A stretch of 64,000 bases of DNA from Bacilli bacterium (GTDB lineage: Bacteria > Bacillota_I > Bacilli_A > RF39 > UBA660): positions 142,752-206,751 of the forward strand of contig JAFWMN010000011.1 of NCBI GenBank assembly GCA_017513865.1, given 5' to 3'. A program made the position numbers and the translations under genes. Below, piece by piece: positions 31,242 through 53,427 of this stretch (positions within the stretch are counted from its first letter, which is position 1; the number at the start of each line of letters is the position of its first letter). The notes under the pieces are model-generated. The model searched no databases, was not told where the DNA came from, and saw only the letters and a program-made list of their open reading frames with translations.

Positions 31242-31913
31242 CTACGGGTTTTGTGCTTGTGAAGTATCTGACTGTGCCTGTGAAGTATCTGACTGTGCTT
31301 GCGCAGTACTTGACTGCGAAGCAATATCTTGGGTAGCTGTAATCTTAACATGAATCTCAATTTCATTTTCAAGAGGATAAGTATTTTTAAAATCATATGA
31401 TGCTTTTCCCCAATATGTATCAAGAGCATCATCACCTGACTCATAAGGCCAAACAATAAGCATCTGAAAGTTTGTACTATCAGTAATTCCAATTGTCGGA
31501 TTACCAACCGAAAAAGTTATTGTAAATGGATAATTATTAGCTAACATACTCTCAAGCTGTGCTGAAGTATAATTATCATTAGTATAAGTATTCTCAAATA
31601 TTTTAACCGATGTCAGTTCATATATAATATTTGCAGGCATTTCACCGGAATTTCTAATATTAATGGTATCAGTATAATTACTCATACCTGGATAAATATC
31701 CGAAACATTAAAGACAACATTATTAACTAAAGTAGTACCATTTTGCGCAAAAGTAATTTTCCAAGATTTTACACCCGCATTAATTGTCGCAGCAATCTTA
31801 TTACTATAAATAAACCACGCAAATGCATTAGCCATAAACATAAGTACAAGGAAAAATATTGTCCTTCGCCTAAGTCCTTTTTTTAATTTAACATGACTAC
31901 CCTTGCTCTTCAT
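31242..31913 (-). CDS. SipW-type-signal-peptide protein (TasA/CalY-like filament subunit candidate)
   Basis: Basic N-terminus, hydrophobic helix, NAFA|WF, beta-rich body with IYPG and WPYESG.D..DT.WG. Overlaps the adjacent sipW. Confidence 0.65.
   Translation of the reverse strand: MKSKGSHVKLKKGLRRRTIFFLVLMFMANAFAWFIYSNKIAATINAGVKSWKITFAQNGTTLVNNVVFNVSDIYPGMSNYTDTINIRNSGEMPANIIYELTSVKIFENTYTNDNYTSAQLESMLANNYPFTITFSVGNPTIGITDSTNFQMLIVWPYESGDDALDTYWGKASYDFKNTYPLENEIEIHVKITATQDIASQSSTAQAQSDTSQAQSDTSQAQNP
31252..31310 (-). repeat. 21-bp coding tandem repeat (SQAQSDT, about 2.8 copies)
   Basis: TGTGCYTGTGAAGTATCTGAC at 31252-31272 and 31273-31293, plus a partial copy. Confidence 0.85.
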
Positions 31914-32466
31914 TTTGAACCTTTTCTTCCTTTTCCTTTATAAAATCAAGAATTTCCAAAAATATTAATAGAGCAATTGGAACAAAAACAAGAAAATAAA
32001 ACCCATATGAATTATTAAGTATATGACTAAGTAAACTTAAAGTAACCGGCTTATACTTAACAACTCCGTAAACTTGTTTTTGATTAACTAAAGGATCTGG
32101 TTCAGGATTACTTATACCTTGTGTTTTATATGTGTAATCTTTACCGTTATAATTAATATTAATAACACGGTGCGTAATAATTTTTCCTTTATAATCCTTT
32201 TCTTCACCCATATAAACTAAATCATCGCCGATTTTAATCTTATCATAATCTTTACTTCCGACGATAATAACGTCACCAATTTCATACTCTGGAACCATAC
32301 TGCCGGTAGCAATAGTGAATATGCGAAAATTGCTTATTGTAACTTTATTGTTAAAAACTCTTTGCACAAGAATAACGGCTACTATGAGAATAGCAATTAC
32401 CCAAATAATAGCTCTCAAAATACCAACTATTATTTTAAATGCTTTATTATTCATTATTTTTTTCAT
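31897..32466 (-). CDS. sipW: Signal peptidase I, SipW/ER-type (S26B), intact
   Basis: TGSM catalytic Ser, GD, ITHRV catalytic His, N- and C-terminal TMs. Confidence 0.9.
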   Translation of the reverse strand: MKKIMNNKAFKIIVGILRAIIWVIAILIVAVILVQRVFNNKVTISNFRIFTIATGSMVPEYEIGDVIIVGSKDYDKIKIGDDLVYMGEEKDYKGKIITHRVININYNGKDYTYKTQGISNPEPDPLVNQKQVYGVVKYKPVTLSLLSHILNNSYGFYFLVFVPIALLIFLEILDFIKEKEEKVQNEEQG

Positions 32467-33565
32467 TTTTCTTCACCTTCAAATCATGATCTTTCGCCAT
32501 GTAAAGTTCAATTGCCTCTTTATATTTTTTAGCTATCGCACTTGTATCAACAACTTTTCGATATTTAACTTTAACATATTCATCACCGATGAGCCGCATA
32601 ACATCTTCTACTGAAAGTTGATCACTGATACTAAGTAATTGATTAACGGTATTTTCTGCAACTTTATTTTGAAGTTCTTCTTTCGGTTTTTCTTCTTCGC
32701 CATCAGCTGATTTCATTATCAAATAATTAAGCATAAATGAGTCATTCATCATCTGTTTCAATGCACCATTATCTTCATATCCATCATTTTTATTTTCATT
32801 TTTGCTACTTGGTTCCATATGTGACTGCATGTAGTTCCAAAGATCTAATGCATATTGAAAATTAACATTTTTTAAAATTAAATTAGTTTTTTTAATTGGT
32901 GAAACTACTGGAGCCACATGTAATTTAGCGATATCTTTATAAACACTTGTACTACATAAATCTGTAATTCGCTGCTCAAGCTTTTCTATTCTACCAGAGA
33001 TATCATCGCCTTTAGCATTCTTATCATCTAAATCACTTTTAATCTGTAAAGCAAGTTCTAATTTTTCTTTATTGACATTTGCTGTACCTCGATACTCTAA
33101 AGAACGATGTTCTTTCTTAAACGTTCCACTAATTGTTTCAGTTTTTTTTCTTTCTATATACATTTTCATATTATTGATAAGCGTATATATAAATCTATTT
33201 TCATAAGTATTAAAACTTTCTTCTTTATTAATATTTAAAATTTTAGAGGGTTTTACCTCATTAGTTTCTGGATCATATTTTTGAATAAAGTTCGTATTTC
33301 TAGATAGATGTTTTATACTATCAACCGTAATTCTTCTAGCAAGTTCAATTTTAACAATTTCCTCTTCATTAACAATAAATCTATTAGGGTTTCTAAGAAT
33401 ATTATCAAGATATCTAACGGTTTCCTCCATCTTCGTAAGCCATTCATCATCATACGCCCCGCTGTTGATTTTTCTTGAAACATTTAACGTTGACTTAACT
33501 GATGAATTAAAAGCTTTTCTTTTAGTATCATCCATATTGTTATAAAGATTAATAATATTGTTCAT
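32447..33565 (-). CDS. DUF2357 (McrC N-terminal-like) protein without a nuclease domain
   Basis: EESFNTYENRFIYTLI and KKTNLILKN.NF..A..LW. No PD-(D/E)xK motif visible. Directly downstream of the McrB-like gene. Confidence 0.75.
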   Translation of the reverse strand: MNNIINLYNNMDDTKRKAFNSSVKSTLNVSRKINSGAYDDEWLTKMEETVRYLDNILRNPNRFIVNEEEIVKIELARRITVDSIKHLSRNTNFIQKYDPETNEVKPSKILNINKEESFNTYENRFIYTLINNMKMYIERKKTETISGTFKKEHRSLEYRGTANVNKEKLELALQIKSDLDDKNAKGDDISGRIEKLEQRITDLCSTSVYKDIAKLHVAPVVSPIKKTNLILKNVNFQYALDLWNYMQSHMEPSSKNENKNDGYEDNGALKQMMNDSFMLNYLIMKSADGEEEKPKEELQNKVAENTVNQLLSISDQLSVEDVMRLIGDEYVKVKYRKVVDTSAIAKKYKEAIELYMAKDHDLKVKKNEKNNE

Positions 33566-33578
33566 AAAATCACTTCCA

Positions 33579-35120: not shown

Positions 35121-35131
35121 TATATCACCTT

Positions 35132-36127: not shown

Positions 36128-36135
36128 ACCAGCTC

Positions 36136-37083
36136 CTAATATCTATAAGTAACAGTTAAAACATTACTATTACTATAATCGGCATTTTTATTCTTTTTAT
36201 AAAATTTAATAACACTACTAATGCTTGAATCCATATCAAATTTAAATTTTTTAACATAATTGTATCCACCGATAGATTGTGTTTCGATATCATATGCTTT
36301 AATAAAATCAGAAGATGTATTATCTATTAAAACAACCGTTGGGTCAAAGGCAACTGTAATTATTGCGGAAGCACACTTTCTTTTATTAATATCGGTAAGA
36401 ACATCATATATAGCTTTACTAATGTGGTTTCCCTCTGTATAAGTAACAGTATTTCCAGAAACAGTATCACTAAAACTCTCTTTAACAAGATAAGAATCCA
36501 AAGTATTTGTAACCCTAAGTGTCAAATAAGGATCACCTGCACTATCTTCAATTGAATGTCCAAGGCCATATTTACCAACAATCAAAGTAAAAGTAGCAGA
36601 AAGTTCCTTCACATAAGGACTTGTAGATGAAGCATAAACACTAAAAGTGACACTATCATTATCATTAAAAATTGCATTCGGTGTCATGGTAAAAGTAAAA
36701 TTATCAGTATTTGAATTTGCTGAAACTGTCCCACTCGTTTTAGACAAACTACATATAACATTGTTAGGGCAAGAATATCTAGTTGTATATGTTATATCAT
36801 GAGAACTTTTCAATTTGTCATTTTTAAAACTATTTATATTTATAGCAATATCATAAGGATCTACACCATTCCAATAATTCAAAGAATAACTAGCTGCCGG
36901 ATCTTTTAATTTATCACTTTCAAAAAAGAAATTTTGTGTTAAAAAATATAAATTTAAAACTCTTTTGTAAACATATTTACCAAAACTAACAGTTAAGGTA
37001 AGAGACATCATACATATGAAAACAACGATGATATATTTTTTAACCTTTGAAAGTTTATGAACTCTAATTTTTCTTTTCAGCAT
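36136..37083 (-). CDS. SipW-type-signal-peptide protein (minor filament subunit candidate)
   Basis: Basic N-terminus, hydrophobic helix, VSFG|KY, FFFESDKL, Ser/Thr-rich beta domains. Confidence 0.6.
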   Translation of the reverse strand: MLKRKIRVHKLSKVKKYIIVVFICMMSLTLTVSFGKYVYKRVLNLYFLTQNFFFESDKLKDPAASYSLNYWNGVDPYDIAININSFKNDKLKSSHDITYTTRYSCPNNVICSLSKTSGTVSANSNTDNFTFTMTPNAIFNDNDSVTFSVYASSTSPYVKELSATFTLIVGKYGLGHSIEDSAGDPYLTLRVTNTLDSYLVKESFSDTVSGNTVTYTEGNHISKAIYDVLTDINKRKCASAIITVAFDPTVVLIDNTSSDFIKAYDIETQSIGGYNYVKKFKFDMDSSISSVIKFYKKNKNADYSNSNVLTVTYRY

Positions 37084-37552
37084 ATTTATACTTCTTTAAC
37101 AAAATTATAAAATAAATAATTATTGGAATTATCACAAACAGTAAATATCCTATTTTGCTAGTAAAAAACACATATAAATATCCAAGTAATGGTATATGAA
37201 TACTGGAACTAGTTGTCCCAACAATATATTCACTAGATAAAAATTCATTATCCCGAATCACGTATGTAAGACTATCAGTATCTAATACTTTTTTAACAAC
37301 TTCGCTATTCAAAAAATTGGTTCCACTACTAGTATCATAGAAAAGTATTTCATCACCAACTTTTATATCATCTTTGTTTAAAATAATAAATAAATCACCT
37401 TTTTTTAAAGTAGAAATATTTCTTTCACTATCGGCAATAGTGACATTACCAATTTTACTATCTGAAAACTTATTAAAAGTAAATAGTAATATCGTGGTTA
37501 CTATTACAAATAAAGCATAAATAGTCAGAAGTACATACTTAGCTACTCTCAT
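37064..37552 (-). CDS. Catalytically degenerate SipW-like protein
   Basis: SipW topology (TM, KGDL..I, IKVGDEILFY, YIVG, IPLLGY, C-terminal TM GYLLFVIIP) but no GSM serine or HR histidine. Confidence 0.65.
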   Translation of the reverse strand: MRVAKYVLLTIYALFVIVTTILLFTFNKFSDSKIGNVTIADSERNISTLKKGDLFIILNKDDIKVGDEILFYDTSSGTNFLNSEVVKKVLDTDSLTYVIRDNEFLSSEYIVGTTSSSIHIPLLGYLYVFFTSKIGYLLFVIIPIIIYFIILLKKYKYAEKKN

Positions 37553-37713: not shown

Positions 37714-37737
37714 AAAAAAAGGAAGTAAATACTTCCT
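37714..37737 (-). terminator. Intrinsic terminator after 37743..38786
   Basis: AGGAAGT-ATTT-ACTTCCT followed by T run on the minus strand. Confidence 0.7.
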
Positions 37738-37742
37738 AAATA

Positions 37743-38786
37743 TTATCCACCTTGTGATTGAGAGGTAATAGATACATCCACAATACTAAATTGTAAGTAG
37801 AAACTGATTTCTCCACCTGATGCATTGTTTTCACAGTCAACATCTTGTCCTTCAACCCACATATAAATACGCATTTTTGTAATACCAGCTAACAAACCAT
37901 TTGCTGCCGTTAATGTTTGACTAGTTGTATAACCTTCAACCGTTTTAATATCTGGATTAACATCAGTAAAATATTCAGAATGTAAAGTTTGTGTGGCTTG
38001 TTCACGTTTGATGCCTAAAGTATCAGCAAACTCTGCTTTTACTCCTGAATATGGAACCCAAGCATTACTAGTACCTTGACTTAAAGTCGTAATACCATAA
38101 GGGCTTATTGCGTTAGCAACACCATCGGCTGTATGAACATTGTAATTAGGCTCCCAAATTTTAACAGTTGATGAAGTTCCATCATTTAAAGCTCTAATGT
38201 TAGCAATAGAATCAGAAGTTGTCGTATGACCTAGTGTAACAAAAGCAACTCTAGTAGCATTTTTAATACCACTATCAGAATTTCTAAACGTTACTCGTGA
38301 GTTCGGAGTCATATATAAAGTTTCATTACTTTCGTTTTTAAGGAAAATATCAAACGCTATAAATTTACCTGAAGCTGTCGTATTAGTTTCAACAGATTGA
38401 GTTGCACTTAACACAAAGTCTCCGGTTGTCTCGTTAGCTATAACTTGCCCTAAAAACATTTTCATTTTACCAGTTGCATCCACATCACCAATTGTTGAAA
38501 CTGGTTCAAGCGTAGATGGAACTTGGTTAACCGCTGCTGTATATGTTGCAGAAGCCCCAGTTATATCAGAATTTATTAAAACTGACTTCCAGTTACTACC
38601 ATCTGCCGAAATTTGGATACCACTAGATGTAGATACGTTTACATCGATTGGGCTAATTGTTACTTTTTGGTTAGCCGTGAACCATGCAAATGATGCTGTT
38701 CCTAAAAACACGCCTGCGGCAAGTAATAACAAAAGAGTTAATAATAATCTTCTTTGTTTTCTTCCATTATTTTTTTGATTTGCCAT
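37743..38786 (-). CDS. SipW-type-signal-peptide protein, probable major filament subunit (TasA/CalY-like)
   Basis: RKQRR, Leu-rich helix, TASFA|WFTAN, C-terminal IYMWVEGQDVDC. Has its own promoter, AGGAGG RBS and terminator. Confidence 0.7.
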   Translation of the reverse strand: MANQKNNGRKQRRLLLTLLLLLAAGVFLGTASFAWFTANQKVTISPIDVNVSTSSGIQISADGSNWKSVLINSDITGASATYTAAVNQVPSTLEPVSTIGDVDATGKMKMFLGQVIANETTGDFVLSATQSVETNTTASGKFIAFDIFLKNESNETLYMTPNSRVTFRNSDSGIKNATRVAFVTLGHTTTSDSIANIRALNDGTSSTVKIWEPNYNVHTADGVANAISPYGITTLSQGTSNAWVPYSGVKAEFADTLGIKREQATQTLHSEYFTDVNPDIKTVEGYTTSQTLTAANGLLAGITKMRIYMWVEGQDVDCENNASGGEISFYLQFSIVDVSITSQSQGG

Positions 38787-38810
38787 AAAATCCTCCTACT
38801 TTCTACTACC

Positions 38811-38856: not shown

Positions 38857-39420
38857 TTATGTTTGCTCTGCATCAACTGTAACTTCAATCACATCAATCA
38901 AATCTTGAAAAATCGCACTTCTATAAGAAACAGGAAAATTAATGACTAAAGTGTATGTATCAGTTTTCTGAACACCATGGACAAAACTACCAACTTGGGG
39001 ATTATATCTATAAAAGTACATTCCATCATCATCTTGAATTGTTTCTTTAGTACCGATAATATCTGTGTCCCCACCATTCGCATATAACTTATAAGAAACA
39101 GGGACATTAGTCGTTGTTTTTATCCGTAAAGTATAATCCATATCAACTTCACTAGTCTTTCCGTTTTTAAAATTTGAAACAGTAATACTATAACTAAAAT
39201 TTGAGCCATCAGGAGCTAACTCTCCAATTTTTATTTGCTGAGTTTGAGGGATAGGATCAATTACATAAAAAGCAATTTTGTTAGAAACAGTCCCTTCAGC
39301 ATCACTATGAAAAATTGAAAACACTGTTTTCATTAAAATTAATATGATAAAAAAACCAAAAACAGAAATGGTAATTTTATTAAATAATGTAAACTTTTGC
39401 TTATTTAACACTAGAACCAC
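38857..39420 (-). CDS. SipW-type-signal-peptide protein (minor subunit candidate)
   Basis: Hydrophobic helix, KTVFS|IF, ELAPDG, YSITVSNFKNGKTSEVDMDY (similar to the 36136 protein). Confidence 0.6.
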   Translation of the reverse strand: MVLVLNKQKFTLFNKITISVFGFFIILILMKTVFSIFHSDAEGTVSNKIAFYVIDPIPQTQQIKIGELAPDGSNFSYSITVSNFKNGKTSEVDMDYTLRIKTTTNVPVSYKLYANGGDTDIIGTKETIQDDDGMYFYRYNPQVGSFVHGVQKTDTYTLVINFPVSYRSAIFQDLIDVIEVTVDAEQT

Positions 39421-39976
39421 CCTTTTTGATTTTTATTCCCGAATAATAAATGCCAAAATCATCACTTTTTGTCAAAATTCTTTTCCCAGTATAAGAAAAA
39501 GCTAATGAGAACATAAACAATGTAAAACAAACTAATATAATGATTTTAGGCGTCGTAAAAACCTTATACCAGACACCCATATTTGGAAGGATTTTTACAA
39601 CTTTTCCGACAACCTGATCTTTTCCAATTTGCTTATCTCTAGCATTATTCGCATCACCTTTAGTAACAAAACCATTGCCGGTTTTAGAAATAACTCTATG
39701 GGTGACTAAAATATCACCATCTTTATAAGTTATAACATCATCAACATCGACATTTTTAGTTATCTTAACTAAAATTAAATCATTTGTCGTAATTGTTGGA
39801 GCCATACTGTTACTACCTATTTGAAATAACGTATGTGAAAAGAAACTAGCATAACTGTTGGATAGAATATTTAAAGAAACAAATAAATATATACAAATAC
39901 CCAAAACAATAAATAATAATGCCGAAAACACTTTACTCACTATCTTTACAAAACTATATAAATAGTCTCTTTTCAT
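39401..39976 (-). CDS. sipW: Signal peptidase I, SipW/ER-type (S26B), intact
   Basis: SNSMAPT catalytic Ser, VTHRV His, TKGDANN..D. Confidence 0.92.
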   Translation of the reverse strand: MKRDYLYSFVKIVSKVFSALLFIVLGICIYLFVSLNILSNSYASFFSHTLFQIGSNSMAPTITTNDLILVKITKNVDVDDVITYKDGDILVTHRVISKTGNGFVTKGDANNARDKQIGKDQVVGKVVKILPNMGVWYKVFTTPKIIILVCFTLFMFSLAFSYTGKRILTKSDDFGIYYSGIKIKKGGSSVK

Positions 39977-39992: not shown

Positions 39993-40562
39993 CTATTCTA
40001 TATGCTGACTAAAACTAATACTAACTGGTATTTCAAAATAACCATCAGCTGATCCCATCGCTGAATCAGTAACATCATGATTACCATCATCATTCCAAGT
40101 AAAAGTTACTCTTATAGTATCTGTTACACCATTAATTATATCAGATAAAGGAAAAACTCTACCATAAACGCCATTATTAGCCGTAAGATTAGTCCCGTTA
40201 ATTCCCTGAATACTATCGATCGTAATTTGATCATACAAAGAATTACTTAAATCAATAGATATTTGATACTCAAAAGAAACTTCCGTATCCCCTGGATCAA
40301 TTTCAAGGAGAAAAGAACCAGTAACCCCTGGTGCAAATCTACCCGCACTAACACTTTGATTATTTGTATAAGTTATATTATCAACATAAAAAGTATTAGT
40401 TGTATTATTTAAATCATAATCATTAACATATATGTGCCACTTTGCTATATCTATATCGCTATCTTCAGTAAACCTTGTTTCAAAAACACCAAAACTTCTA
40501 GTAATTTGAAAAAAAGTTAAAACAAGAAATAGACAACTTATAACTGTTAACGTTTTTTTCAT
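39993..40562 (-). CDS. SipW-type-signal-peptide protein (minor subunit candidate)
   Basis: MKKTL start at 40562 coupled to the upstream stop. TRSFG|VF, AKWHI.VN, FAPG, TWNDDG..D.TDS.MG. Confidence 0.65.
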   Translation of the reverse strand: MKKTLTVISCLFLVLTFFQITRSFGVFETRFTEDSDIDIAKWHIYVNDYDLNNTTNTFYVDNITYTNNQSVSAGRFAPGVTGSFLLEIDPGDTEVSFEYQISIDLSNSLYDQITIDSIQGINGTNLTANNGVYGRVFPLSDIINGVTDTIRVTFTWNDDGNHDVTDSAMGSADGYFEIPVSISFSQHIE

Positions 40563-40563
40563 A

Positions 40564-41349: not shown

Positions 41350-41401
41350 ATCCACACTCCTCTATCATAATTCTATCACAAAATAATAAATTTACATAGT
41401 A

Positions 41402-43222: not shown

Positions 43223-46200
43223 CTATTTAATTATAATATATTGAGAGCAATCCCCAATAAAGGCTGTACCATCATATAAACTAAAGACAAATTTGTACGT
43301 TCCACTAATAAGTAACGTTTTTAAATAAAGTGTCTTAGTCATGCCATGTACCGGCGTATCAATAAACATATATTCATTAGTAGCACCACTAATCGCACTG
43401 AGTTGATTAGTTACATAATCTGCCAAATCAACTTCATTATAAGTTGAAGAATCAGGATTGGTGTAATCGCGTCGATACAATTTAACATGAACATTAGGGT
43501 TTGCAAAAGTTGAATTATATTCCACTGTAAAATTCAAAAGATTGTTATCATTTAAAGTATACCCCATTACTTTATCAATCATCATTTCATTATCAGTTAA
43601 TTTAATTTTTAAACCATATGTACTATTAATTATAGTAAACGGAATATTTAAAGTATCCTGTGCCACATGGCCATAATAAATACCATCCGGTGAAGTAAAT
43701 GATTCAATTTTAAGAGTATAGTTGCCTGAAACTAAATTGACATTTTGAGTATTTATTTTTATTCGCTTAAATATATTTGCAACTCTATCAGCCAAAGCAA
43801 TTCTTACACTTCCATCCATACGTGGATAATAAGTAGTTCCATCAACTTCATAAGATAACCCAAGCAAGCTACTATTATTAAGTTGATTGCCACTAGAATT
43901 ATAAATTGTTAACTTAACTCCTGGTTTTTTATTAAAGTGACTTGTGTCAACAACCGGAAGTGAGTTTACAATTGGTTGTGTAAAGTTACCTGTCAAGTTT
44001 AAAGTAACCGTATCCCCAATATAAACAGGATTTTCACTTAAAGTTCCACTGATATCAACGACAGCATTACTACCAGCATACATATTATAAGTGAGGGACG
44101 ATCGTTGAATACCCAAAACACTAATTAGGGTATTATTTTGAGCATCCCGCAAATCCATAAATAACGTATTACCCAGCTGATTGTTTGCGATTGATGTATC
44201 TTCAAAATTAACGATAAATATAAACTCTTCTTCTACTGTTCCTGCTGTACTATTATAATATTTTGCAACATTTTGACTCTCATTATAATTGTTATTAGTG
44301 CTAGTCGAACCCATTTTTATAAAATTAGCTAATTCGTAATAACACTCACCATCTAAATTATATTCACTAGTTGTTCTAGCAACCGTCGCACTATCTACAA
44401 TAAAATAATAAGTTTCATTATCAATTAAATCAAGCATAGTTATTTTTGTGTTTTCTGGGAAAACGTAATTTGAAAGTAATGAGTGATGATATCCCGTTCT
44501 ATAATATGAATTTTCTGTATTCATAAATAATGAATAATAAGCACTAAACATCGATTTAGTATTTATATTTGTCGGACTAGAAGCAAACATATTAAATTTT
44601 TCACCTGATGTCATTGCTCCTTCATAATCATTATTATTATATAAAGCAGAAGTAAGTGTTACATTAATATTAACACGATTTACTTCATCATTAAGTTCAT
44701 CAATTGGTGTAGATGTTTCCAACGAAATAATTACTGTTCCAATTTCTCTAGATAATGTAATATTTTTAGAATGATAAAAATAGAAAAGTAATTTTGGAAC
44801 TGCCGTTGAGTTTTCAGAGATATATTTTTTTGTACCTAATACCGGATTACTACTATTAGTTACAAACGATGTAGAACCAGAAGTAACAAAACCAGTGTTT
44901 GAAGGCTCAAATTTAAGTCCCATTTTCGTATCAGCTGTTCCTTCATTATTAACCCTAGGAATCTGACTTTCTTCTACGAGCTGAAAACCAGTTTCCAAAT
45001 CTTCATAGTTAAATCCTAAAATCTGGAAAGTCGTGTTTGGATTATTAGAATAATCAAGAGGAAGTTCATAAGTTCCCAAAGTCGCATATTTAGATGCGGT
45101 TAAAGTTATATCATAAGTGGCAACTTGTTCTCCTATTAACCACCTATAAAATTCTCCTTCAGGTGGGCTTGGTTCAATATAAGCAACTTTTATATGTCCT
45201 TCATTATCTTTATCAGCAAAATTACTATAAAAACCATCAACCTTTATATTATGGTTTGTATGATGTGATCCAACCACATAACTACCAGAGGTAAATGCAT
45301 ATAAAACGTTACTTGCTTCATCACCATTACTATAAGAATTATCATACAAAGCCGTAATAACTCTGCCGTTTCCACCAACTTTATACATACCAAAGAATGT
45401 CATACCACTAACTCTACCATAAGCCGAAGCAAATTCATTAGTTGCTATGTTCAGATTCTTTCCTTCAGCCATATATATTCTATTATTAACATTTCGCGTC
45501 ATACTACCTGAATCAGTAATATTTGCAGCAGCTTTTTCCACCGTATTACCAGTTATTTTTTCGCTATAAAAACTCTTTAATAAGTTTACCCCAACATCTA
45601 GAAATAATGTACTATCATTAGCTAAAACAAGTTTATCAATTCGGCTTAATGTAAATTCAACATCCGAAAATTCATTAGTTCTGTCCTTCGCACCTTCTAA
45701 TTTTATTGCTGAATTCTTAATCGTCAATGTGTCTGTTCTTTGAATAGATACATTTTCTTTATAATTTGTAAAAGTTCCGTAATTAGAAATATTTATTTCA
45801 CTCGTTCCAGAAGTAGATGAAGCATTACCACTACCAAAGATTGAACCATCTATATTAAAACTATTATATCCGGCTCCATCAATATTAACTTGAATAGCCC
45901 TCGTTACTCCGATAAAGTTAAAGTCATATATAGGTGACCCACTAGCATTAGCTTCACCACCGCCAAAGACTGTTCCATCTATTTGAATGTTAGATTGAAC
46001 TATATTATTAGCCGAATATCCAACATTAACAATTGCTGTACCATATAAAACCGCAGTATTAGCTCCACCATAAACATTTCCGTGAATAGTAGCTCCTGCA
46101 ATGTTAACGTGACTAGTAGAAGAATTACTGTTTTGTGTACCAGTGTTTGCCGCATTTCCACCACCAAATACATGTTCATGTATAATTGAACCATTATGAA

Positions 46201-49200
46201 CTGTTATATCTGTATTTCCATAAACAATAGCCGACGCACCATTACCACCAGCGTAGGCACTACCATATACTGTAGAGCCAGAAATCTTAACAGTAGAATT
46301 GCCTAAAACTTCGCCTAAGTTTCCACCACCAAAGAAATCACCAGCAATTGTCGAAGAAACAAAATTAACATTAGTATTATAATTTACAGCCGCACTATTT
46401 CCACCACCAAAGAAATCGCCAGTAACATTTATGCCGTTTACATAAACCGTAGTATAATCTGTTTCTGCATTGTTACCTCCACCATAAATATTAGTGTATG
46501 TTCCGCCAACAAGATTTAAAGCTGTATCAACTGTTTTTCCACCAGCATTATTTCCACCATAAACTGAAGTTACTGTCAAATTAGAAGCATTGTTTGTCGT
46601 AACATTACTTTGCGTAACTGTACCAGCAGAATTACTACCACCATAAACTGCAGTGGCAGTCCCACTTACTAGATTTACATTGGTTGTTCCAACACCCGCG
46701 CTGTTTCCACCACCAAATAATGAACCAACAGTAGCACCTCTTAAAGTAATATTTGATGTGGTTGTTTGAGCATTATTTCCCCCGCCATAAGCCGTGGTAA
46801 TTGCTCCTGAGTTTAAATTTACATTTGTTGTTACTGTCGTTCCTCCGGCATTATTTCCACCATAAACTGTAGGAACATTTGCATTAATATTTACTAAAGA
46901 TTCTTGGACAGTTCCGGTTTGATTAGAACCACCATATATTGCTCCTGTTATCGTACCACTAGTTAAAGTGATATTACTCTTTGTTGTAACATTAGCACTT
47001 TGACCACCACCGTAAGCATTCGTAGTAGTTCCGCCAATAATATTGACATTGGTTGTTCCCGTTGCCGCTTCTTTTCCGCCACCATAAACTGTCGTAATTG
47101 TTCCTGAATTTATATTAACATTTGTTGTAGTAGTAGTACCACCTTCGTTATTCCCACCATAAACTGTAGGAACACTTGAATTAATATTTACTAAAGATTC
47201 TTTAACTGTTCCGGTTTGATTAGAACCGCCATATATTGCCCCTGTTATCGTACCACTAGTCAAAGTAACATTACTTTTTGTTGTAACATTAGCACTTTGA
47301 CCACCACCATAAGCATTAGTAGTAGTTCCACCAGTAATACTAACATTGGTCGTCGCTGTCGTGGCTTCTTTACCACCACCATATAAAGCCGTAACTGTTC
47401 CTCCAGCCATATTGACATTAGTAATTGGAGTCGTTCCTCCAACATTATTTCCACCATATACATTAGTCGCGGTACCATTATTAATATTAACAACTACATC
47501 ACCAACAGGTGTTCCGTTAGCGTTGTTTCCACCAAAAACATTAGTAATATTTCCGCCATTTATATTTACTGTAATATCACCCGCAACACACGGCGCTTGT
47601 GTAGAACTTCCTTCACCGCCGCCATATACATTAGTAATTGTTCCAGAATTAACATTAACCGTCGTTTTATATGTGCTTTCAGTTGTCGTAACACTTGCTG
47701 AATTTACTGTACCAAAAGCACTTCCGCCATATACACTACCAATAGTAGGTCCAGTAGTATTAAGAGTTCCTATTGTAACATTAGAAGCTCTTTTTACATA
47801 AGTGTTACTACCTTGACCACCGCCATATACACTACCGGTTACTGTCCCACCAGTAATATTTACACTAGTATTACCAGTAACAATACCTGACGTATTAGCG
47901 CCGCCATATACATTGCCAGCTACAGTACCGCCACTCATATTAATAATAGCATTAGTGGCAACGTTATAATCCTCTACTTTGTTCTGGTTTCCACCACCAT
48001 ATACACTACCTTGTATAGAACCATTTAAAATGGTAATTTTAGATTCAGCTGCAGAATTACCACTACTAACACCTGTAACTCCGTAATTTCCACCGCCATA
48101 AATACTGTCATTAATAGTACAATTTTCATTAATAACAATGTAAGAATTATCGTTAGATCCAATTCCTAAGTATCCACTTTTACCATTACCATTACCAAAT
48201 ACATTTCCTGGATTAACGCCATACATATTAGAGCCACTAGCTAAAGTAGTATCACCTATAACAGCATCGCCACCAACATAAATAAAACTAGAGCCATATA
48301 AAGTACCATCACCATCACTAGTATTACTTATATTACCATTAGAACCACCTAAAACACTATATTTAACATTTCCACCAGTAACAGAAATAATTCTATTACC
48401 ATAAGTTGAAGATCTACCGGCTCCGCCAACAATTAAATCAACATCGCCGCCAGTCATATAAATATAAGTATCATTAACCGCACGTCTAGAAGAAGAGGTT
48501 AATGGACCACCTATCAAATTATAAATCCAGCCGCCCTCTATTTTAGCACTTCTAGCTGCATTATAAGTTCCATTAAGGACGCCACCAACATATACGCCAG
48601 TATACATATCAGCCTTGCTGGTACCAAATTTGCCGCTTTTTATAACCTGCATAACCGCAGAATCATTAGCAGAATAAATGTTTCCAGCCCATGAAGCTGT
48701 AGCTTCATAATAAACTTCTAAATTGTTATTATTTTCTCTAACTCGGTCCAAATCATTACCAAATATTGCTTCAGCCTGTATATATAAATTGTCATAATCA
48801 TATCTATTGGTTGGTTCTGTAACCGAAGTATTATTATAATATCCAGATTCGATAATCAATTTATATCTAGTATTTGAACTGCTACTTCCTGTAGACGTGT
48901 TTCCACCAATAAGTCCGTTAAAATTAACATAATTATTATATTTACTTAACCCGCGACCAACTTTTAAATTATGGTAAGTTGCATTTAATAGTCTACTGTT
49001 ATTCATATCGGCAGAACTATAATCAGTACCAGAACTAATAGTCATATGCTCAATAGTTGTGTCATTAACAAGTGATATATTTGCCCCTGTCGTCCATCGG
49101 TTAGTTGATTGTGTACCGTTTGCAAGTATTCCAGTAAAAGTAAAAGGTTTATTATAAGTACTACCTGTACCCCAGTTAGATGTTAAATTACTAGTATTTA

Positions 49201-50419
49201 AATGTGCGATATTTGTATCCCTGGTAGCTAGATAGTAATACCTTCTCCCCGTTTGAAAATAATTGATATTTCCATTACTGTCATATTTATCAAGGTATCT
49301 ATATAAATCATTACAACCACCATTAGTGTTACAAGTACCACTTTGTATATAACCCTCATCATCATATAAGCCTTCTATAGAAGCATTCCTAGCTATATTT
49401 CCGGCTGGGGTATAATATCCCGCCATAACACTAGTACTTGAATATAAATCTTCGTCATGGCAAATATCATCAGCATGTTCTAAAATATAAGCATCAGTCG
49501 CGACTATAAAATTATTACCGGCATCATTTTCTCTATAATAAGTAGTACTACTATCATAAAGAGAATTATTATTAATAATTGTCCAATAATCACAACCACC
49601 ATAAGTATTACAATATCTATTATTAGCCGTACGAATTCTACCACCACTAACATAATACCCAGTATAATAACTATACCTGTTAGCATGAGCTGCTAAATAA
49701 AAACCATTCATAACAACTTCTGATAAAGAAGTAGGTCTAACACATACTTGATGTGTTGTTGCAATAGAATGTAATTCTCCACTATCAAAACGGCCAAATA
49801 TAGTAGACCAACCTTCAGAAGTGTTTCCTTCTTTAGCATCTATCCAATGAGCATAAAAAGATATATCGATATCGGCATATCCATTACCACTACTAGTTGG
49901 CGTTACTATTGCATATCTTTCGTAAGTGTCTTTATCAAGATAAACACTAACTCCTTGGGAATCACTTATCCAACTATTAAAACCTTTGCCAGTTGGTCTA
50001 TTAGCAAAAGGATTATCAATTAAAGGAATTTTTACTTTACCATTTTCAACAGGATACCAATGATAATATATATACGTATTATAATTTTCCGTAGTTGAAA
50101 CTGTCCCAACCAAGCTACTATCATAAAAATCTCTACCATAATAATTTATTTTTACTTTAACCATATTGCTTGTGTTATAAATATTCTGATCAGCTCCCGT
50201 TGGTAAAGTGCCACCAGTTTTTGTGTAATTTAAACTATTATAATAATATAAGTCTGCCTTCTCATCATCAACTGTAACTACTGTCCCATTAACACCACTT
50301 CTAGAAGTAGCCGGAGCCGTAGCTACAAACTGTCCATAAGATATAAAAACGTAGGATAGTAATGCAATAGAAACAAACAAAAAAACAAATAATAATTTAT
50401 TATTTTTAAGTTTTTCCAT
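43223..50419 (-). CDS. Giant (2398 aa) adhesin-like protein with Gly-rich beta-helix-type repeats
   Basis: N-terminal hydrophobic helix ending ISYG|QF, many [VIA][YF]GG[GSN] repeats spaced about 25 aa apart, beta-sandwich-like C-terminal region, no sortase motif. Confidence 0.75.
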   Translation of the reverse strand: MEKLKNNKLLFVFLFVSIALLSYVFISYGQFVATAPATSRSGVNGTVVTVDDEKADLYYYNSLNYTKTGGTLPTGADQNIYNTSNMVKVKINYYGRDFYDSSLVGTVSTTENYNTYIYYHWYPVENGKVKIPLIDNPFANRPTGKGFNSWISDSQGVSVYLDKDTYERYAIVTPTSSGNGYADIDISFYAHWIDAKEGNTSEGWSTIFGRFDSGELHSIATTHQVCVRPTSLSEVVMNGFYLAAHANRYSYYTGYYVSGGRIRTANNRYCNTYGGCDYWTIINNNSLYDSSTTYYRENDAGNNFIVATDAYILEHADDICHDEDLYSSTSVMAGYYTPAGNIARNASIEGLYDDEGYIQSGTCNTNGGCNDLYRYLDKYDSNGNINYFQTGRRYYYLATRDTNIAHLNTSNLTSNWGTGSTYNKPFTFTGILANGTQSTNRWTTGANISLVNDTTIEHMTISSGTDYSSADMNNSRLLNATYHNLKVGRGLSKYNNYVNFNGLIGGNTSTGSSSSNTRYKLIIESGYYNNTSVTEPTNRYDYDNLYIQAEAIFGNDLDRVRENNNNLEVYYEATASWAGNIYSANDSAVMQVIKSGKFGTSKADMYTGVYVGGVLNGTYNAARSAKIEGGWIYNLIGGPLTSSSRRAVNDTYIYMTGGDVDLIVGGAGRSSTYGNRIISVTGGNVKYSVLGGSNGNISNTSDGDGTLYGSSFIYVGGDAVIGDTTLASGSNMYGVNPGNVFGNGNGKSGYLGIGSNDNSYIVINENCTINDSIYGGGNYGVTGVSSGNSAAESKITILNGSIQGSVYGGGNQNKVEDYNVATNAIINMSGGTVAGNVYGGANTSGIVTGNTSVNITGGTVTGSVYGGGQGSNTYVKRASNVTIGTLNTTGPTIGSVYGGSAFGTVNSASVTTTESTYKTTVNVNSGTITNVYGGGEGSSTQAPCVAGDITVNINGGNITNVFGGNNANGTPVGDVVVNINNGTATNVYGGNNVGGTTPITNVNMAGGTVTALYGGGKEATTATTNVSITGGTTTNAYGGGQSANVTTKSNVTLTSGTITGAIYGGSNQTGTVKESLVNINSSVPTVYGGNNEGGTTTTTNVNINSGTITTVYGGGKEAATGTTNVNIIGGTTTNAYGGGQSANVTTKSNITLTSGTITGAIYGGSNQTGTVQESLVNINANVPTVYGGNNAGGTTVTTNVNLNSGAITTAYGGGNNAQTTTSNITLRGATVGSLFGGGNSAGVGTTNVNLVSGTATAVYGGSNSAGTVTQSNVTTNNASNLTVTSVYGGNNAGGKTVDTALNLVGGTYTNIYGGGNNAETDYTTVYVNGINVTGDFFGGGNSAAVNYNTNVNFVSSTIAGDFFGGGNLGEVLGNSTVKISGSTVYGSAYAGGNGASAIVYGNTDITVHNGSIIHEHVFGGGNAANTGTQNSNSSTSHVNIAGATIHGNVYGGANTAVLYGTAIVNVGYSANNIVQSNIQIDGTVFGGGEANASGSPIYDFNFIGVTRAIQVNIDGAGYNSFNIDGSIFGSGNASSTSGTSEINISNYGTFTNYKENVSIQRTDTLTIKNSAIKLEGAKDRTNEFSDVEFTLSRIDKLVLANDSTLFLDVGVNLLKSFYSEKITGNTVEKAAANITDSGSMTRNVNNRIYMAEGKNLNIATNEFASAYGRVSGMTFFGMYKVGGNGRVITALYDNSYSNGDEASNVLYAFTSGSYVVGSHHTNHNIKVDGFYSNFADKDNEGHIKVAYIEPSPPEGEFYRWLIGEQVATYDITLTASKYATLGTYELPLDYSNNPNTTFQILGFNYEDLETGFQLVEESQIPRVNNEGTADTKMGLKFEPSNTGFVTSGSTSFVTNSSNPVLGTKKYISENSTAVPKLLFYFYHSKNITLSREIGTVIISLETSTPIDELNDEVNRVNINVTLTSALYNNNDYEGAMTSGEKFNMFASSPTNINTKSMFSAYYSLFMNTENSYYRTGYHHSLLSNYVFPENTKITMLDLIDNETYYFIVDSATVARTTSEYNLDGECYYELANFIKMGSTSTNNNYNESQNVAKYYNSTAGTVEEEFIFIVNFEDTSIANNQLGNTLFMDLRDAQNNTLISVLGIQRSSLTYNMYAGSNAVVDISGTLSENPVYIGDTVTLNLTGNFTQPIVNSLPVVDTSHFNKKPGVKLTIYNSSGNQLNNSSLLGLSYEVDGTTYYPRMDGSVRIALADRVANIFKRIKINTQNVNLVSGNYTLKIESFTSPDGIYYGHVAQDTLNIPFTIINSTYGLKIKLTDNEMMIDKVMGYTLNDNNLLNFTVEYNSTFANPNVHVKLYRRDYTNPDSSTYNEVDLADYVTNQLSAISGATNEYMFIDTPVHGMTKTLYLKTLLISGTYKFVFSLYDGTAFIGDCSQYIIIK
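46857..47450 (-). repeat. Internal 297-bp (99-aa) tandem duplication within the giant protein
   Basis: CCACCATAAACTGTAGGAACA at 46857 and 47154. The peptide AYGGGQSANVTTKSN.TLTSGTITGAIYGGSNQTGTV.ESLVNIN..VPTVYGGNN occurs twice. Confidence 0.85.
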
Positions 50420-50471
50420 AACATCACCTCCTACTTTCTTATTTAACTTAAGGATATTTAATTTATTAACA

Positions 50472-51458
50472 TTAAGCTGGATTAGTCGTAAATTTTAAAT
50501 CAAAAGTTATATCACCATAAGACGCATAATCTTCACAGTCAACATCTTGACCTTCTATCCACATATATATTCTCACCTTGGTAACACTAGGTGCTAAATC
50601 CAATATTTTTTGATTAGGACCGCCTGCCTTAGGCGTCGCAATATCCATATTCATGCTTCTAAAGAATGCCGGATAACTAGTCATATTAGCGCTCGAAATA
50701 GGCACACTATCACTCATAAGGATATTACTAATTACACCATCATAAGGTAAAATGGCTGCTCCTGTTTGCGTTGTTGTAAGCCCATATGTTGTGCTTGCAT
50801 GATTCACACCATATTCTGTATGAACATCATAATTTGGTTCCCAGAAAATAGCTGTAGTCGCTCCCTTTAAATTTTGTGAAATATTTGGAACATCTTCCGA
50901 AGACCCTTCCACCAAGAAAGCTATTCGTGTCGCATTTTCAATTCCAGATTGACTTTCACCAGTATATTCAATTTTAGATGTTCCATCTAAATATAACTCT
51001 TTACTTGATTTGACTCTAAAGAAAACATCAAAAGCCACAAAAGAGCCTTCACTTTCCTCACCAAAACTTTCAGTTTCTATTTCTCTATTAGCCACTAAGA
51101 TAAAATCACTACTCTGATCATTAGTCGCATTACCCAAAAATAATTCCAGTTTCCCTTCACCTATGCCTCCTCCTGTTGATACAGGTGACATTTGATAAGG
51201 AATTTGATTAATACTATTAGGATACTTAGTTCTCGCTTCCATAATATCCTGAACTGTAACTACTTGTTTCCAATCTATCGCATTAGTACTAACTTCAAGA
51301 CCACCATCAGCTTGAACATGAACTTGTAAAGATTCAATAGACACCATTCTATTAGCTGAAAACCAAGCATAAGTTGTTGTTAAAAGGAAAAAAGTACTTA
51401 AGAATAGAGGGATTAATAATTTTCTTCTTCGTTTATTCTTTCTTTCCTTTGTTTTCAA
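50472..51458 (-). CDS. SipW-type-signal-peptide protein, paralogue of 37743..38786
   Basis: KRRRK, helix, TTTYA|WFSAN. Shares NATR.AF, WEPNY.VHT..GV and IYMW.EGQDVDC with the 37743 protein. Confidence 0.7.
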   Translation of the reverse strand: MKTKERKNKRRRKLLIPLFLSTFFLLTTTYAWFSANRMVSIESLQVHVQADGGLEVSTNAIDWKQVVTVQDIMEARTKYPNSINQIPYQMSPVSTGGGIGEGKLELFLGNATNDQSSDFILVANREIETESFGEESEGSFVAFDVFFRVKSSKELYLDGTSKIEYTGESQSGIENATRIAFLVEGSSEDVPNISQNLKGATTAIFWEPNYDVHTEYGVNHASTTYGLTTTQTGAAILPYDGVISNILMSDSVPISSANMTSYPAFFRSMNMDIATPKAGGPNQKILDLAPSVTKVRIYMWIEGQDVDCEDYASYGDITFDLKFTTNPA

Positions 51459-52149
51459 TGTGTTCCTCCATTATTTCCATTTTTAGTTTTAATTCTCCAC
51501 CTATTATTGCATCCACACATTCTGGGTCATCTCCCTCTAAATAAATAACCACTGTAAACTTATCGTTTTCTTTAGGCGCTAAGTGTTTTCTTTGTTTAAG
51601 CATTGCATATTTATTAGAATAAAATTCTATAGTATCCGGTTCTGCCTTTCCTGTTAAATCACTTGCTTTAGCATAAACTGTTTTTACTCCATTTTCATAA
51701 ACAACAATTCTAATTGCTTCATCAACATTCTTAATAACATCAAGGATTTTAATTCGATACCAATAATTAATCGTTTGATCGCCAGTATTTCCTACATAAA
51801 ATGTGTAAGCGATATAATTTTCACCATTATGACTGCCATCTTTTTCATCATTAATATCTTTAGGAATCCATTCACCAGAAATGTTGTCCATAAATTCTAT
51901 CTCTTTAGCATATAATTTGTTACTATAATTAATATCATTTTTGCTTTCAAATAAAACAATCCCACTTTTTAAAGTAAAATTTGGATCTAAAGTAACCGTA
52001 AAACGGCCACCTTTATAAATTATTGATAAAATAAAAAATGAAATTAAAAGAAGCAAAAAAGCCACGATAACTATTATCTTAGTATATTTAAGTCTTTTCT
52101 TTCTTTTTTCTAAAGATTTTGCTGTTACTTTTACTTCACCTACACCCAT
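51433..52149 (-). CDS. Membrane-anchored pilin-like protein (possible base/anchor subunit)
   Basis: N-terminal TM with no A|xF cleavage motif, NYIAYTFYV.N.G, C-terminal VIYLEGDDPEC. Confidence 0.55.
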   Translation of the reverse strand: MGVGEVKVTAKSLEKRKKRLKYTKIIVIVAFLLLLISFFILSIIYKGGRFTVTLDPNFTLKSGIVLFESKNDINYSNKLYAKEIEFMDNISGEWIPKDINDEKDGSHNGENYIAYTFYVGNTGDQTINYWYRIKILDVIKNVDEAIRIVVYENGVKTVYAKASDLTGKAEPDTIEFYSNKYAMLKQRKHLAPKENDKFTVVIYLEGDDPECVDAIIGGELKLKMEIMEEHIENKGKKE

Positions 52150-52260
52150 AACTTCACTTCCCTATTCTTAATATAATTTTACCATATTTCACTATATAAT
52201 GTAAACTAATTGTCATGTTTTTAAGCCAAAAAAAATAATTATTTTTTCATATCAAAATAA

Positions 52261-52674
52261 TTATTTCTTATCATTTCTTCTAAGGCCAAAATCAAAATCC
52301 TGATCGCTATTCACTGCTGTCATTGAAATTGTTTTAAATAAATCATCTAAATCTAAAACCTCATCATTAACTTCATCAATTTTTTCTTCTTTTGAAGGGT
52401 AAAGATCTAAAACTTCAATTTCCTCTTCTTGTTTATTTAAAGGTTGTATTGCTGCATTTAATGGTTGTGGATTAGTTGCTGATTTTTCTTTTTTCTTAAA
52501 CATTTTAGAAAAAATAGATTCCTTTTTTTCTTTTGAATTATTAATTACATCATTTTCTTTTTTTCTATATTCTCCACTAGGCTTATTCTTTTCCTTCTTT
52601 TGTCTAATTATTTTTAATATTAATAGTAAGCCAAAGCATATAATGGCTATTAAAACTAAAAAAACAATCCACAT
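52261..52674 (-). CDS. Small bitopic membrane protein with charged cytoplasmic tail
   Basis: N-terminal TM, Lys-rich then acidic tail (EEEIEVLDL, DEVLDLDDL). Confidence 0.55.
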   Translation of the reverse strand: MWIVFLVLIAIICFGLLLILKIIRQKKEKNKPSGEYRKKENDVINNSKEKKESIFSKMFKKKEKSATNPQPLNAAIQPLNKQEEEIEVLDLYPSKEEKIDEVNDEVLDLDDLFKTISMTAVNSDQDFDFGLRRNDKK

Positions 52675-52836
52675 AATATCAGCCTACCTTCTACTAATAA
52701 TTTTACCACAACTTAAAGATTATTAAAACATTTTTTTAATAAAAACTATTTACACAGAATTTACAACCACATAAATAAAAAAAAGTATTTTATTTATAAG
52801 CCATGATATAATAAAAATAAAGATAGGAGGTAATAT

Positions 52837-53427
52837 ATGACTAAAAATAAATTGAAATTTATCATAGCTATTATTGCCTTAATTATCTGCATTGGCCAAA
52901 TAAAGCAAACATATGCCAAATATACCGAATCAAAAACAGGTGACGCTGAATTCGAGGTTGCCTGCTGGCACATTTTATTAAATAACAGCGACATCACTGA
53001 AGGTTCTACAATGTCTTCACTCATAAATCCTGTTTATGAAAATAACACTAATGTTGCTTCTGGCGTAATTGCTCCTGGTAGTGAAGGATATTTTCTTATT
53101 GATATAAATGCCACTAATACCGAAGTTTCCTTTAGCTATAACATATCTATAACACCAGCTATTAGCACTGATGTTGAAGATTTAACAATAAGTGCTTATC
53201 AAATAGACAACGGTGCAATGAACTACGTTCAAAGTGGTATTAATAATTTAACCGGAAATATTAGTCACAATGCTCAAAACAAAACAATTAGTTTAAAAAT
53301 ATATTTCGAATGGTTTGAAGGACAAGGGGAACAAATGAATAACGCAGCTGATACTGCCGCTTCAGTCGGTGGTGGAACCGGTAAAATAAACATAAGTGCA
53401 ACATTCACTCAAATTGCAAACACTTAA
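52837..53427 (+). CDS. SipW-type-signal-peptide protein, divergently transcribed (paralogue of 39993 and 31242)
   Basis: RBS GGAGGT, KQTYA|KY, ACWHILLN, IAPG, EWFEGQG....ADT...G. Confidence 0.7.
   Translation: MTKNKLKFIIAIIALIICIGQIKQTYAKYTESKTGDAEFEVACWHILLNNSDITEGSTMSSLINPVYENNTNVASGVIAPGSEGYFLIDINATNTEVSFSYNISITPAISTDVEDLTISAYQIDNGAMNYVQSGINNLTGNISHNAQNKTISLKIYFEWFEGQGEQMNNAADTAASVGGGTGKINISATFTQIANT

Follow-up and report, generated by a model that had tools for sequence, protein, structure and literature searches.

A predicted SipW-class signal-peptide signature shared by non-homologous proteins that are encoded beside active and inactive signal peptidases in uncultured Bacilli

The stretch of DNA analysed here, 64,000 nucleotides of contig JAFWMN010000011.1 from a Bacilli bacterium (positions 142,752 to 206,751, referred to as the window), has a G+C content of 27-38% and carries nearly all of its genes on the minus strand. 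A run of genes from about 29.2 to 53.4 kb has next to no database annotation, and eight proteins of this cluster, named here by the first coordinate of their genes (Table 1), share the motif [FY]-[AGS]-x-[FY] close to their N-termini. The motif was present in all eight, within residues 26-37, and followed directly upon a Lys/Arg-rich n-region and a hydrophobic stretch. A preliminary description of this DNA had listed the eight strings as cleavage sites behind a basic n-region and a hydrophobic helix, and all of them were found as written. With the proposed bond placed between P1 and P1′ (marked by an arrow in the sequences below), the residues at P3 were A, S, S, V, S, S, T and T, thus small or neutral, and those at P1 were A, G or S. 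Type I signal peptidases follow a -3/-1 rule, which therefore puts the cut at the bond proposed earlier and makes it a plausible site for a peptidase of this type.

The 56 open reading frames (ORFs) of the window served as the background set. Among their 20,329 positions, the loose motif [FY][AGS]x[FY] occurred 62 times, i.e. 0.0030 per position. In the first 50 residues it was seen in all eight named proteins, compared to four of the 21 other window ORFs with an N-terminal hydrophobic segment (hypergeometric C(12,8)/C(29,8) = 1.2e-4; 2.9e-5 with a stricter table). One of these four outside matches, YSGY in the ORF at 21902-22636, was considered as a ninth case and rejected, the ORF being a sortase with a membrane anchor. 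Two other exported proteins of the window carry the classical sites VKA↓DN (20755-21825) and VHA↓EE (23016-26042) and a third one has a lipobox; the signature therefore distinguishes the cluster within the window. Neither an LPxTG motif nor a C-terminal anchor occurs in any of the eight proteins.

Table 1. Features of the cluster in the order of their window coordinates. Scores for TIGR02228 are to be read against its cutoff of 51.85 bits.
Feature	Coordinates	Strand	Characteristics
s223, 223 aa, exported	31242..31913	-	NAFA↓WF, P2 at residue 31, motif codons 31812-31823; distant member of the 39993 family; no Pfam/NCBIfam match
Active SipW-type (archaeal/ER-type) signal peptidase I, module 2	31897..32466	-	TIGR02228 86.3 bits; Ser-Met, Thr-His and Asp in 31/31 orthologues
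DUF2357 protein, partner of the AAA+ NTPase	32447..33565	-	PF09823 5e-14
McrB-type AAA+ NTPase, N-terminal hydrophobic (likely membrane) segment	33579..35120	-	PDB McrB E 7e-5; PADLOC PDC-M26A 1.9e-35
c331, accessory block, no evident membrane segment	35132..36127	-	Weak similarity to c525 (BLAST E 4.5e-4); no known relatives
s315, 315 aa, exported, orphan mature domain	36136..37083	-	VSFG↓KY, P2 at 34, motif codons 36973-36984
Pseudo-SipW psi1, SipW fold and membrane topology	37064..37552	-	TIGR02228 32.2 bits (below cutoff); Ser/His absent in 17/17 orthologues
Terminator-like hairpin and T-run	37720..37737	-	6 nt past the 37743 stop codon
MAJ347, 347 aa, putative major subunit	37743..38786	-	ASFA↓WFTANQKV, P2 at 33, motif codons 38679-38690; all-beta sandwich, C-terminal EGQDVDCE invariant
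s187, 187 aa (184 aa by gene callers), exported, orphan mature domain	38857..39420	-	TVFS↓IF, P2 at 34, motif codons 39310-39321
Active SipW-type signal peptidase I, module 1	39401..39976	-	TIGR02228 77.2 bits; catalytic residues in 39/39 orthologues
s196, 196 aa (189 aa from the second Met), exported beta-sandwich	39993..40583	-	RSFG↓VFE, P2 at 31 (24 from the gene-caller start), motif codons 40482-40493
Pseudo-SipW psi2, Ala/Pro/Glu/Val-rich C-terminal tail	40564..41355	-	TIGR02228 18.5 bits (below cutoff); Ser/His absent in 53/53 orthologues
c525, no evident membrane segment	41402..42979	-	In every architecture (synteny)
GIANT, 2,398 aa, GGxN-type repeat-rich, exported	43223..50419	-	ISYG↓QF, P2 at 28, motif codons 50327-50338; no Pfam match; syntenic in nearly all loci
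MAJ328, 328 aa, 37743 paralogue	50472..51458	-	TTYA↓WFSANR, P2 at 30, motif codons 51360-51371
m238, 238-aa membrane protein of the minimal core	51433..52149	-	Without the motif; Y-x-G-G-R-F-T-V-S-L-D past the transmembrane (TM) segment
s196b, 196 aa, 39993 paralogue	52837..53427	+	QTYA↓KY, P2 at 26, motif codons 52912-52923

Conservation of the site in orthologues is stronger evidence than these chance statistics. Eighty related loci were taken from reference genomes and their ORFs were assigned by best match to the window proteins. In the 37743 family, which comprises at least 1,914 homologues (for 120 of which no Pfam domain is recorded), Y/F-A-W-F was found in 49 of 49 sequences, and the consensus GT(A/S)TYAWFTAN(K/Q)TV was almost invariant, with W, F, N and V invariant out to +9. 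All 27 members of the 31242 family had F/Y-A-W-F and 13 of the 15 members of the 52837 family Y-A-K-Y. The 39993 family was tallied on 138 representatives, obtained at 50% clustering from the 2,421 of an exhaustive profile search, and showed Thr (87) or Ser (29) at P3, Tyr (108), Phe (21) or Leu (7) at P2, Ala (73), Gly (33) or Ser (31) at P1 and Phe (93), Tyr (33) or Leu (12) at P2′, with the consensus T-Y-A-L-F-E-S. An aromatic residue (F/Y) occupied P2 in 38 and P2′ in 43 of the 46 members of the 38857 family; in the 36136 family, P2′ was Y/F in 32 of 32 and P2 was F/Y in 21 and Leu in 11. The columns of the site are among the most conserved positions of each family, at overall identities of 25-50%, and the sequence past P2′ varies between the families (FES, WFTAN, WFIYSNK, RYVY, KY). 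The motif is conserved in the families of seven of the eight proteins and partly in that of the giant protein.

The preliminary description had divided the eight proteins into three paralogue groups, two of which were borne out. Proteins 37743 and 50472 are 37% identical (BLAST E 7e-73), and 39993 and 52837 are linked by BLAST (E 1.5e-24) as well as by hhalign on the mature parts (99.7%). Protein 31242 is a distant member of the latter group, its hhalign value against the broad 39993 family being 94.7% (148 columns of the mature part) and its BLAST link weak. For the third group, 36136 and 38857, there was no BLAST link, and the hhalign value of 89.7% fell to 0.4% when, as a mature-only control, everything up to P1 was deleted from the family alignments and the comparison was repeated. 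This pair, which is similar in the signal peptides alone, was rejected, as was the placement of 38857 in the 39993 family (96.4% with and 1.9% without signal peptide). By these comparisons, the signature is attached to mature domains of at least five kinds without detectable homology, those of the 37743 type, the 39993 type, 38857, 36136 and the giant protein, and behaves as a dedicated sorting or processing signal, unlike a structural element that is inherited with a fold. The observation confirmed here, a motif conserved in hundreds of sequences on non-homologous cargo, is stronger than the one made originally. As a separate observation, the 3,424-residue protein P0213 has a 39993-type domain in its N-terminal part (residues 13-203), that is, the domain of a small subunit fused to a giant protein.

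The eight sites had also been likened to those of TasA and CalY. For comparison we used 117 PF12389 proteins, gathered with a TasA sequence as seed that is 99% identical to the database TasA; this set includes proteins named CalY by their sources. The TasA-family site consisted of T (116), W, Y or F (111, 3 and 3) and A (117) before the bond and A (114) and F or Y (116 and 1) after it, followed by N-D. The window signature, [ST]-[YF]-[AGS]↓x-[FY], is identical in character at P3, P2, P1 and P2′ and differs in that P1′ is not Ala and that no N-D follows P2′. The parallel stood for the site and did not extend to relationship by Pfam, hhalign or Foldseek. PF12389 matched neither the eight proteins (E<=1) nor any of the 138 sequences of the 39993 family. 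Comparison by hhalign with the TasA alignment, a profile of limited reach made of Bacillaceae sequences only, gave probabilities of 0.1-20% with both full-length and mature parts. Pfam and NCBIfam searches with the eight proteins, for NCBIfam also with the N-terminal 60 residues, returned nothing useful. We found no evidence that the cargo proteins are TasA-like. The curated model of the SipW-cognate signal peptide, TIGR04088, recognised 36 of the 49 members of the 37743/50472 family (E<=0.1, best 1.1e-5). One of the 37743 orthologues, the 59%-identical P0030, which JGI names as a protein with a SipW-like signal peptide, scored 19.0 bits and thereby reached the curated cutoff of 19 bits exactly.

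Four SipW-like genes are part of the cluster. The catalytic Ser, His and Asp were kept in 70 of 70 orthologues of the two active SipW genes, while the catalytic Ser and His were replaced in all 70 orthologues of the two pseudo-SipW genes. The latter two are paralogues of each other (E 8e-17), and each of them is found in a module beside an active SipW. Judged by their alignments, the products of 37064-37552 and 40564-41355 are conserved homologous pseudo-enzymes, which may serve as holders of substrates or as a platform for assembly. Co-expression of the cargo with each SipW, as once envisaged for N-terminal sequencing, would therefore have to take into account that two of the four are catalytically dead by loss of Ser and His. 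An active SipW was encoded in 71 of 81 related loci, the ten loci without one being truncated contigs. The housekeeping P-type peptidase LepB is impaired on the TasA site by an aromatic P2′ and by Trp at P2, and an aromatic P2′ is found in none of 143 verified LepB substrates (PMC10269814). The active SipW encoded at 39401 has a Y-A-S-F of its own just past its membrane helix (residues 42-45, window 39850-39861), which may be fortuitous or a site of self-processing.

The explanation that we prefer, and that we regard as reasonably likely, is a Sec signal of the SipW class that reserves unrelated cargo for the co-encoded SipW enzymes, followed by non-covalent assembly of a surface fibre or adhesin. 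The eight N-termini would then be Sec signal peptides of the same class as that of TasA, with the site [small]-[F/Y]-[A/G/S]↓x-[F/Y]. Small residues at P3 and P1 would define the cut of a type I signal peptidase, and bulky aromatic side chains in positions P2 and P2′ would make the site a poor substrate for the housekeeping P-type peptidase, so that maturation would be reserved for the two co-encoded Ser/His SipW peptidases. In this way the signal would mark unrelated cargo for coordinated processing at one membrane site, the cargo consisting of a putative beta-sandwich major protein in two versions, three predicted small Ig-like beta-sandwich proteins, two orphans and the repeat protein of 2,398 residues. 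Upon cleavage, non-covalent assembly of the proteins into a fibre or adhesin at the surface would be the most likely outcome, with 37743 as the major subunit, the small proteins as minor or adaptor subunits, the giant protein as a distal adhesin and 51433 as a possible membrane anchor.

AlphaFold2 (AF2) predicted a beta-sandwich for 37743 (predicted local distance difference test, pLDDT, 86.9; predicted template modelling score, pTM, 0.83) as well as for 39993 (pLDDT 82.9, pTM 0.71), with pLDDT values below 50 for residues 28-39 and 24-34, respectively. The segment at the cleavage site was unstructured in these models, yet it is among the best-conserved stretches of the 37743 family. Such an unstructured but conserved N-terminal segment is compatible with an intermolecular role, be it that of a donor strand or that of a recognition element. 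In Foldseek searches, the nominal top match of 37743 was 7pnb, a donor-strand thread subunit of Sulfolobus (E 0.084, probability 0.28), AbpA (7ueg) was at rank 25 (E 0.8) and TasA was absent from the top 50. The 39993 model retrieved generic Ig-like modules (collagen-binding/PPC domains, PliG, Gram-positive pilin domains and cohesin), with TasA (5of2) at rank 24 (E 0.035, TM 0.24). The matches to 7pnb, 7ueg and 5of2 were not significant and were not used to assign membership.

Several results weigh against the proposed reservation of the cargo for SipW and its assembly. TIGR04088 reported none of the eight window proteins, either full-length or as the N-terminal 60 residues, even at E<=10, and matched 0 of 138 sequences of the 39993 family and 0 of 27 of the 31242 family. 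The model search suggested in the preliminary description thus had a divided outcome, positive for the 37743/50472 family and negative for the window proteins themselves and for these two families, and since the latter go unrecognised, the window signature, as a sequence pattern, is broader than the curated model. At P2, a third of the 36136 orthologues have Leu. The canonical site of the giant protein was seen only in the window and in loci L045 (SYG↓EF) and L041 (TYS↓EF), most other lineages having LLTAKNSFSND in their giant proteins instead. The control within the window consists of just two classical signal peptides. Neither the Foldseek searches of both AF2 models against the PDB (no match at E<=1e-3) nor the profiles of the 37743 and 39993 families against PDB sequences (no relatives) nor hhalign connected the proteins by fold or sequence to a filament subunit already known. 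As no gene for a P-type signal peptidase lies within the 64 kb, the competing enzyme elsewhere in the genome is an assumption. Finally, the motif and its conservation, the active peptidases encoded with it, the conserved gene order and the likeness in character to the site of the TasA family are observations, whereas SipW cleavage at this bond, exclusion of other peptidases and assembly into filaments are inferred.

The last but one of these points also bears on the reading that the motif is merely the general signal-peptide style of the organism, or is cut by a housekeeping peptidase, with the SipW genes being incidental or serving as general peptidases. The small genomes of these lineages, such as the complete OZ006994.1 with the cluster on a chromosome of 1.26 Mb, make a reduced set of peptidases conceivable. 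We nevertheless consider this reading very improbable, given the classical sites and the lipobox on other secreted proteins of the window, the confinement of the motif-bearing genes to the cluster, the low tolerance of P-type enzymes for an aromatic P2′ and the synteny of SipW genes with the cargo across distant genomes. Even more remote is the idea of a functionless remnant of gene duplication: true paralogues do occur among the eight (37743/50472 and 39993/52837/31242), but the site is still shared by five classes that have no homology once the signal peptides are removed, and its columns stay among the most conserved ones in families of low overall identity, so that this reading is effectively refuted. 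The proteins could also remain uncleaved as type II membrane proteins, with F/Y forming an interfacial aromatic belt that is possibly gripped by pseudo-SipW. Membrane helices often end in aromatic residues, the loose motif occurs in four other hydrophobic N-termini of the window, the conserved motif past the TM segment of 51433 lacks the small P3 and P1, and the conserved pseudo-peptidases could bind without cutting. An interfacial belt, however, requires neither the limitation of P1 to A/G/S nor that of P3 to small residues, which holds for hundreds of sequences; the pattern has the same character as the TasA site, for which cleavage is experimentally shown, active peptidases are always co-encoded and the major family is recognised by TIGR04088. 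Uncleaved signal anchors are therefore improbable in our estimation.

A further reading concerns what happens after cleavage by SipW and adds to it. The donor strand of TasA consists of residues 28-38, and F29 (the +2 residue), I32 and F39 dock into neighbouring subunits (PMC9674648), in agreement with what the preliminary description had stated for the +2 aromatic residue of TasA. By analogy, the aromatic residue at P2′ could be conserved mainly as a donor-strand anchor, and all eight proteins would then form one donor-strand-complemented heteropolymer. The conservation of the major subunit beyond P2′, with W, F, N and V invariant to +9, and the unpacked N-terminal segments of both AF2 models fit this proposal, as do the donor-strand exchange modelled for the subunits of tafi, described below, and, nominally, the non-significant 7pnb match (E 0.084). 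It is difficult to reconcile with the distribution of the signature over at least five non-homologous mature domains, with the lack of fold or profile similarity to TasA, AbpA and thread subunits, and with the different sequences that follow P2′ in the individual families. Known donor-strand systems are built of subunits of one fold with a matching groove. Since at least five unrelated mature domains share the signature, the specificity of the peptidase explains it more parsimoniously than docking does. We therefore regard the heteropolymer as possible but doubtful; a donor strand formed by the conserved and predicted-flexible N-terminus of the major subunit (WFTANKTV) is plausible.

The closest analogues with experimental support are the haloarchaeal tafi cluster, taken up below, and tapA-sipW-tasA of Bacillus subtilis (in the B. 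cereus group, sipW-tasA/calY). In the Bacillus clusters, too, a dedicated archaeal/ER-type peptidase gene stands beside its substrates, of which there is more than one per peptidase, and the cargo is all-beta with a conserved mature N-terminus. The window differs in that its eight or nine candidate substrates, one of them 2,398 residues long, fall into at least five unrelated classes, and in having four SipW-like genes, two of which are dead; the conserved pseudo-signal-peptidases, c525 and the embedded pair of a McrB-like AAA+ NTPase and a DUF2357 protein are without counterpart in the Bacillus paradigm. Archaeal filaments of the TasA superfamily or of the donor-strand type (AbpA/AbpX bundling pili, Saci_0406 threads, cannulae) resemble the proposed structure as surface filaments of monoderms with beta-sandwich subunits, but the similarity of the window proteins to them is not significant and no membership is claimed. 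TasA-superfamily filaments are commonly encoded beside signal peptidase I (10.1101/2024.12.30.630787). In the tafi system of Haloarcula hispanica (TafA-G), deletion of the Ser/His signal peptidase I TafD left the major subunit unprocessed and abolished the filament; its subunits were modelled as tip, adaptor, core and anchor with donor-strand exchange, and the peptidase has an accessory partner (PMC11821415). By this description, tafi and the window share a cluster with a dedicated Ser/His signal peptidase I and several distinct subunits, which are putative in the window. They differ in that tafi is archaeal and its subunits bear Tat signals, whereas the n-regions of the window proteins appear to be of the Sec type, and in that mature TafA begins at Phe-30 and not at the site predicted by SignalP.

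The gene order around the signature-bearing proteins is strongly conserved and occurs in three recurring architectures. The minimal one consists of m238 - MAJ (YAWF) - c525 - SipW - GIANT, and the second one of GIANT - c525 - pseudoSipW - s196 - SipW - s187 - MAJ. The architecture of the window adds to these the block pseudoSipW - s315 - c331 - AAA+ - DUF2357 - SipW - s223 as well as s196b on the opposite strand. In m238 (51433), F and D of the motif Y-x-G-G-R-F-T-V-S-L-D are invariant in 27 sequences. From this sequence, m238 may be a ninth substrate that is cut after G-G, with Phe then at P2′, or else an uncleaved anchor. It shares the C-terminal R[IV]Y..EG.D..C with the 37743 family (hmmsearch i-E 2e-6). 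In the 37743/50472 family, the acidic C-terminal R[IV]Y[ML]W[VI]EGQDVDCE is invariant (windows 37743-37850 and 50472-50580), and YLEGDDPEC in 51433 (window 51433-51560) echoes it. Some archaeal donor-strand filaments are calcium-dependent, and by analogy this acidic motif may be a metal (Ca2+) site. For c525, searches of Pfam, NCBIfam, PADLOC and PDB gave no match, and its family profile found no relatives among PDB sequences.

Between loci, the identity of the AAA+ NTPase amounts to 64-95%, compared to 30-50% for its neighbours, and together with the DUF2357 protein it co-occurs with SipW and the same neighbours in 30 loci. The pair therefore looks like a part of the system, and this fixed synteny weakens the alternative that it is an inserted defence island. 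With McrBC-type systems and PDC-M26 it shares the McrB-type AAA+ core and the neighbour with DUF2357, a domain of McrC-like partners; it differs in that the N-terminus of the window ATPase appears to be a hydrophobic, likely membrane segment and not a DNA-binding domain, and in that it does not seem to lie in a variable defence island.

The terminator-like hairpin directly past 37743 is followed by a gap of 190 nt, and the gene of the putative major subunit therefore appears to end a transcription unit. Near-identical contigs (93-97%) in bovine metatranscriptomes were found for 37743 only, an indication that is weak and confounded by the high conservation of this gene, since the contigs are too sparse and cross-match too much for a measurement of expression. 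A scan for promoters gave matches that were no more frequent than in shuffled sequences, and no raw-read RNA run of the source organism was found.

At least 457 reference genomes of uncultured Bacilli from gut and rumen carry the cluster, the hosts being named 'Bacilli', Tenericutes or CAG-type metagenome-assembled genomes (MAGs) of small size. Seven loci (L005, L008, L009, L012, L014, L016 and L065) bear titles that name Muribaculaceae, Bacteroidaceae, Sphaerochaetaceae, Vescimonas and Acidaminococcus; because their DNA is low in G+C and Firmicute-like, these titles are probably errors of MAG binning or labelling. A literature search on this cluster and on TIGR04088-type signals outside Bacillus found nothing relevant, and the cluster appears to be undescribed so far.

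The class of signal peptide is itself already known from TasA/SipW and TIGR04088; what is new is its use together with pseudo-peptidases, the AAA+ pair and several orphan cargo families. It marks unannotated families, 37743 having at least 1,914 relatives and the 39993 family 2,421 cluster representatives; the results also single out 37743 as the probable major subunit. The rule small-aromatic-small↓x-aromatic, applied beside a Ser/His signal peptidase, finds substrates that the curated model misses. We tentatively put forward, as a speculation that may well prove wrong, that the cluster encodes a widespread and undescribed fibre or adhesin machine of uncultured gut Bacilli with small genomes, in which at least five unrelated folds, a giant repeat adhesin among them, carry a common SipW-class signal and are processed by active SipW enzymes, conserved dead SipW paralogues serve as substrate holders or as a platform and, in the larger form, a membrane-anchored McrB-like AAA+ motor assists assembly. 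Such a machine, if it exists, would represent a new route by which Gram-positive bacteria build surface structures, separate from sortase pili, type IV pili and the TasA system. If fibres do form, filament assembly with a dedicated signal peptidase would reach well beyond the TasA superfamily.

Some further features of the window were observed. At the end of the cluster, 29193-30602 encodes a 469-residue protein of the sigma-70 family with long N- and C-terminal extensions, relatives of which stand beside the cluster in loci L005, L064 and L079; it may be a dedicated regulator. The C-terminus of 31242 (window 31242-31330) ends in short tandem SQAQSDT repeats (ASQSSTAQAQSDTSQAQSDTSQAQNP). A separate set of surface proteins lies at 20755-26042 and comprises the protein of 356 residues with the site VKA↓DN (20755-21825), the sortase (21902-22636), a DUF5640 protein (22611-22973) and a Listeria-Bacteroides-repeat protein of 1,008 residues with the site VHA↓EE (23016-26042).

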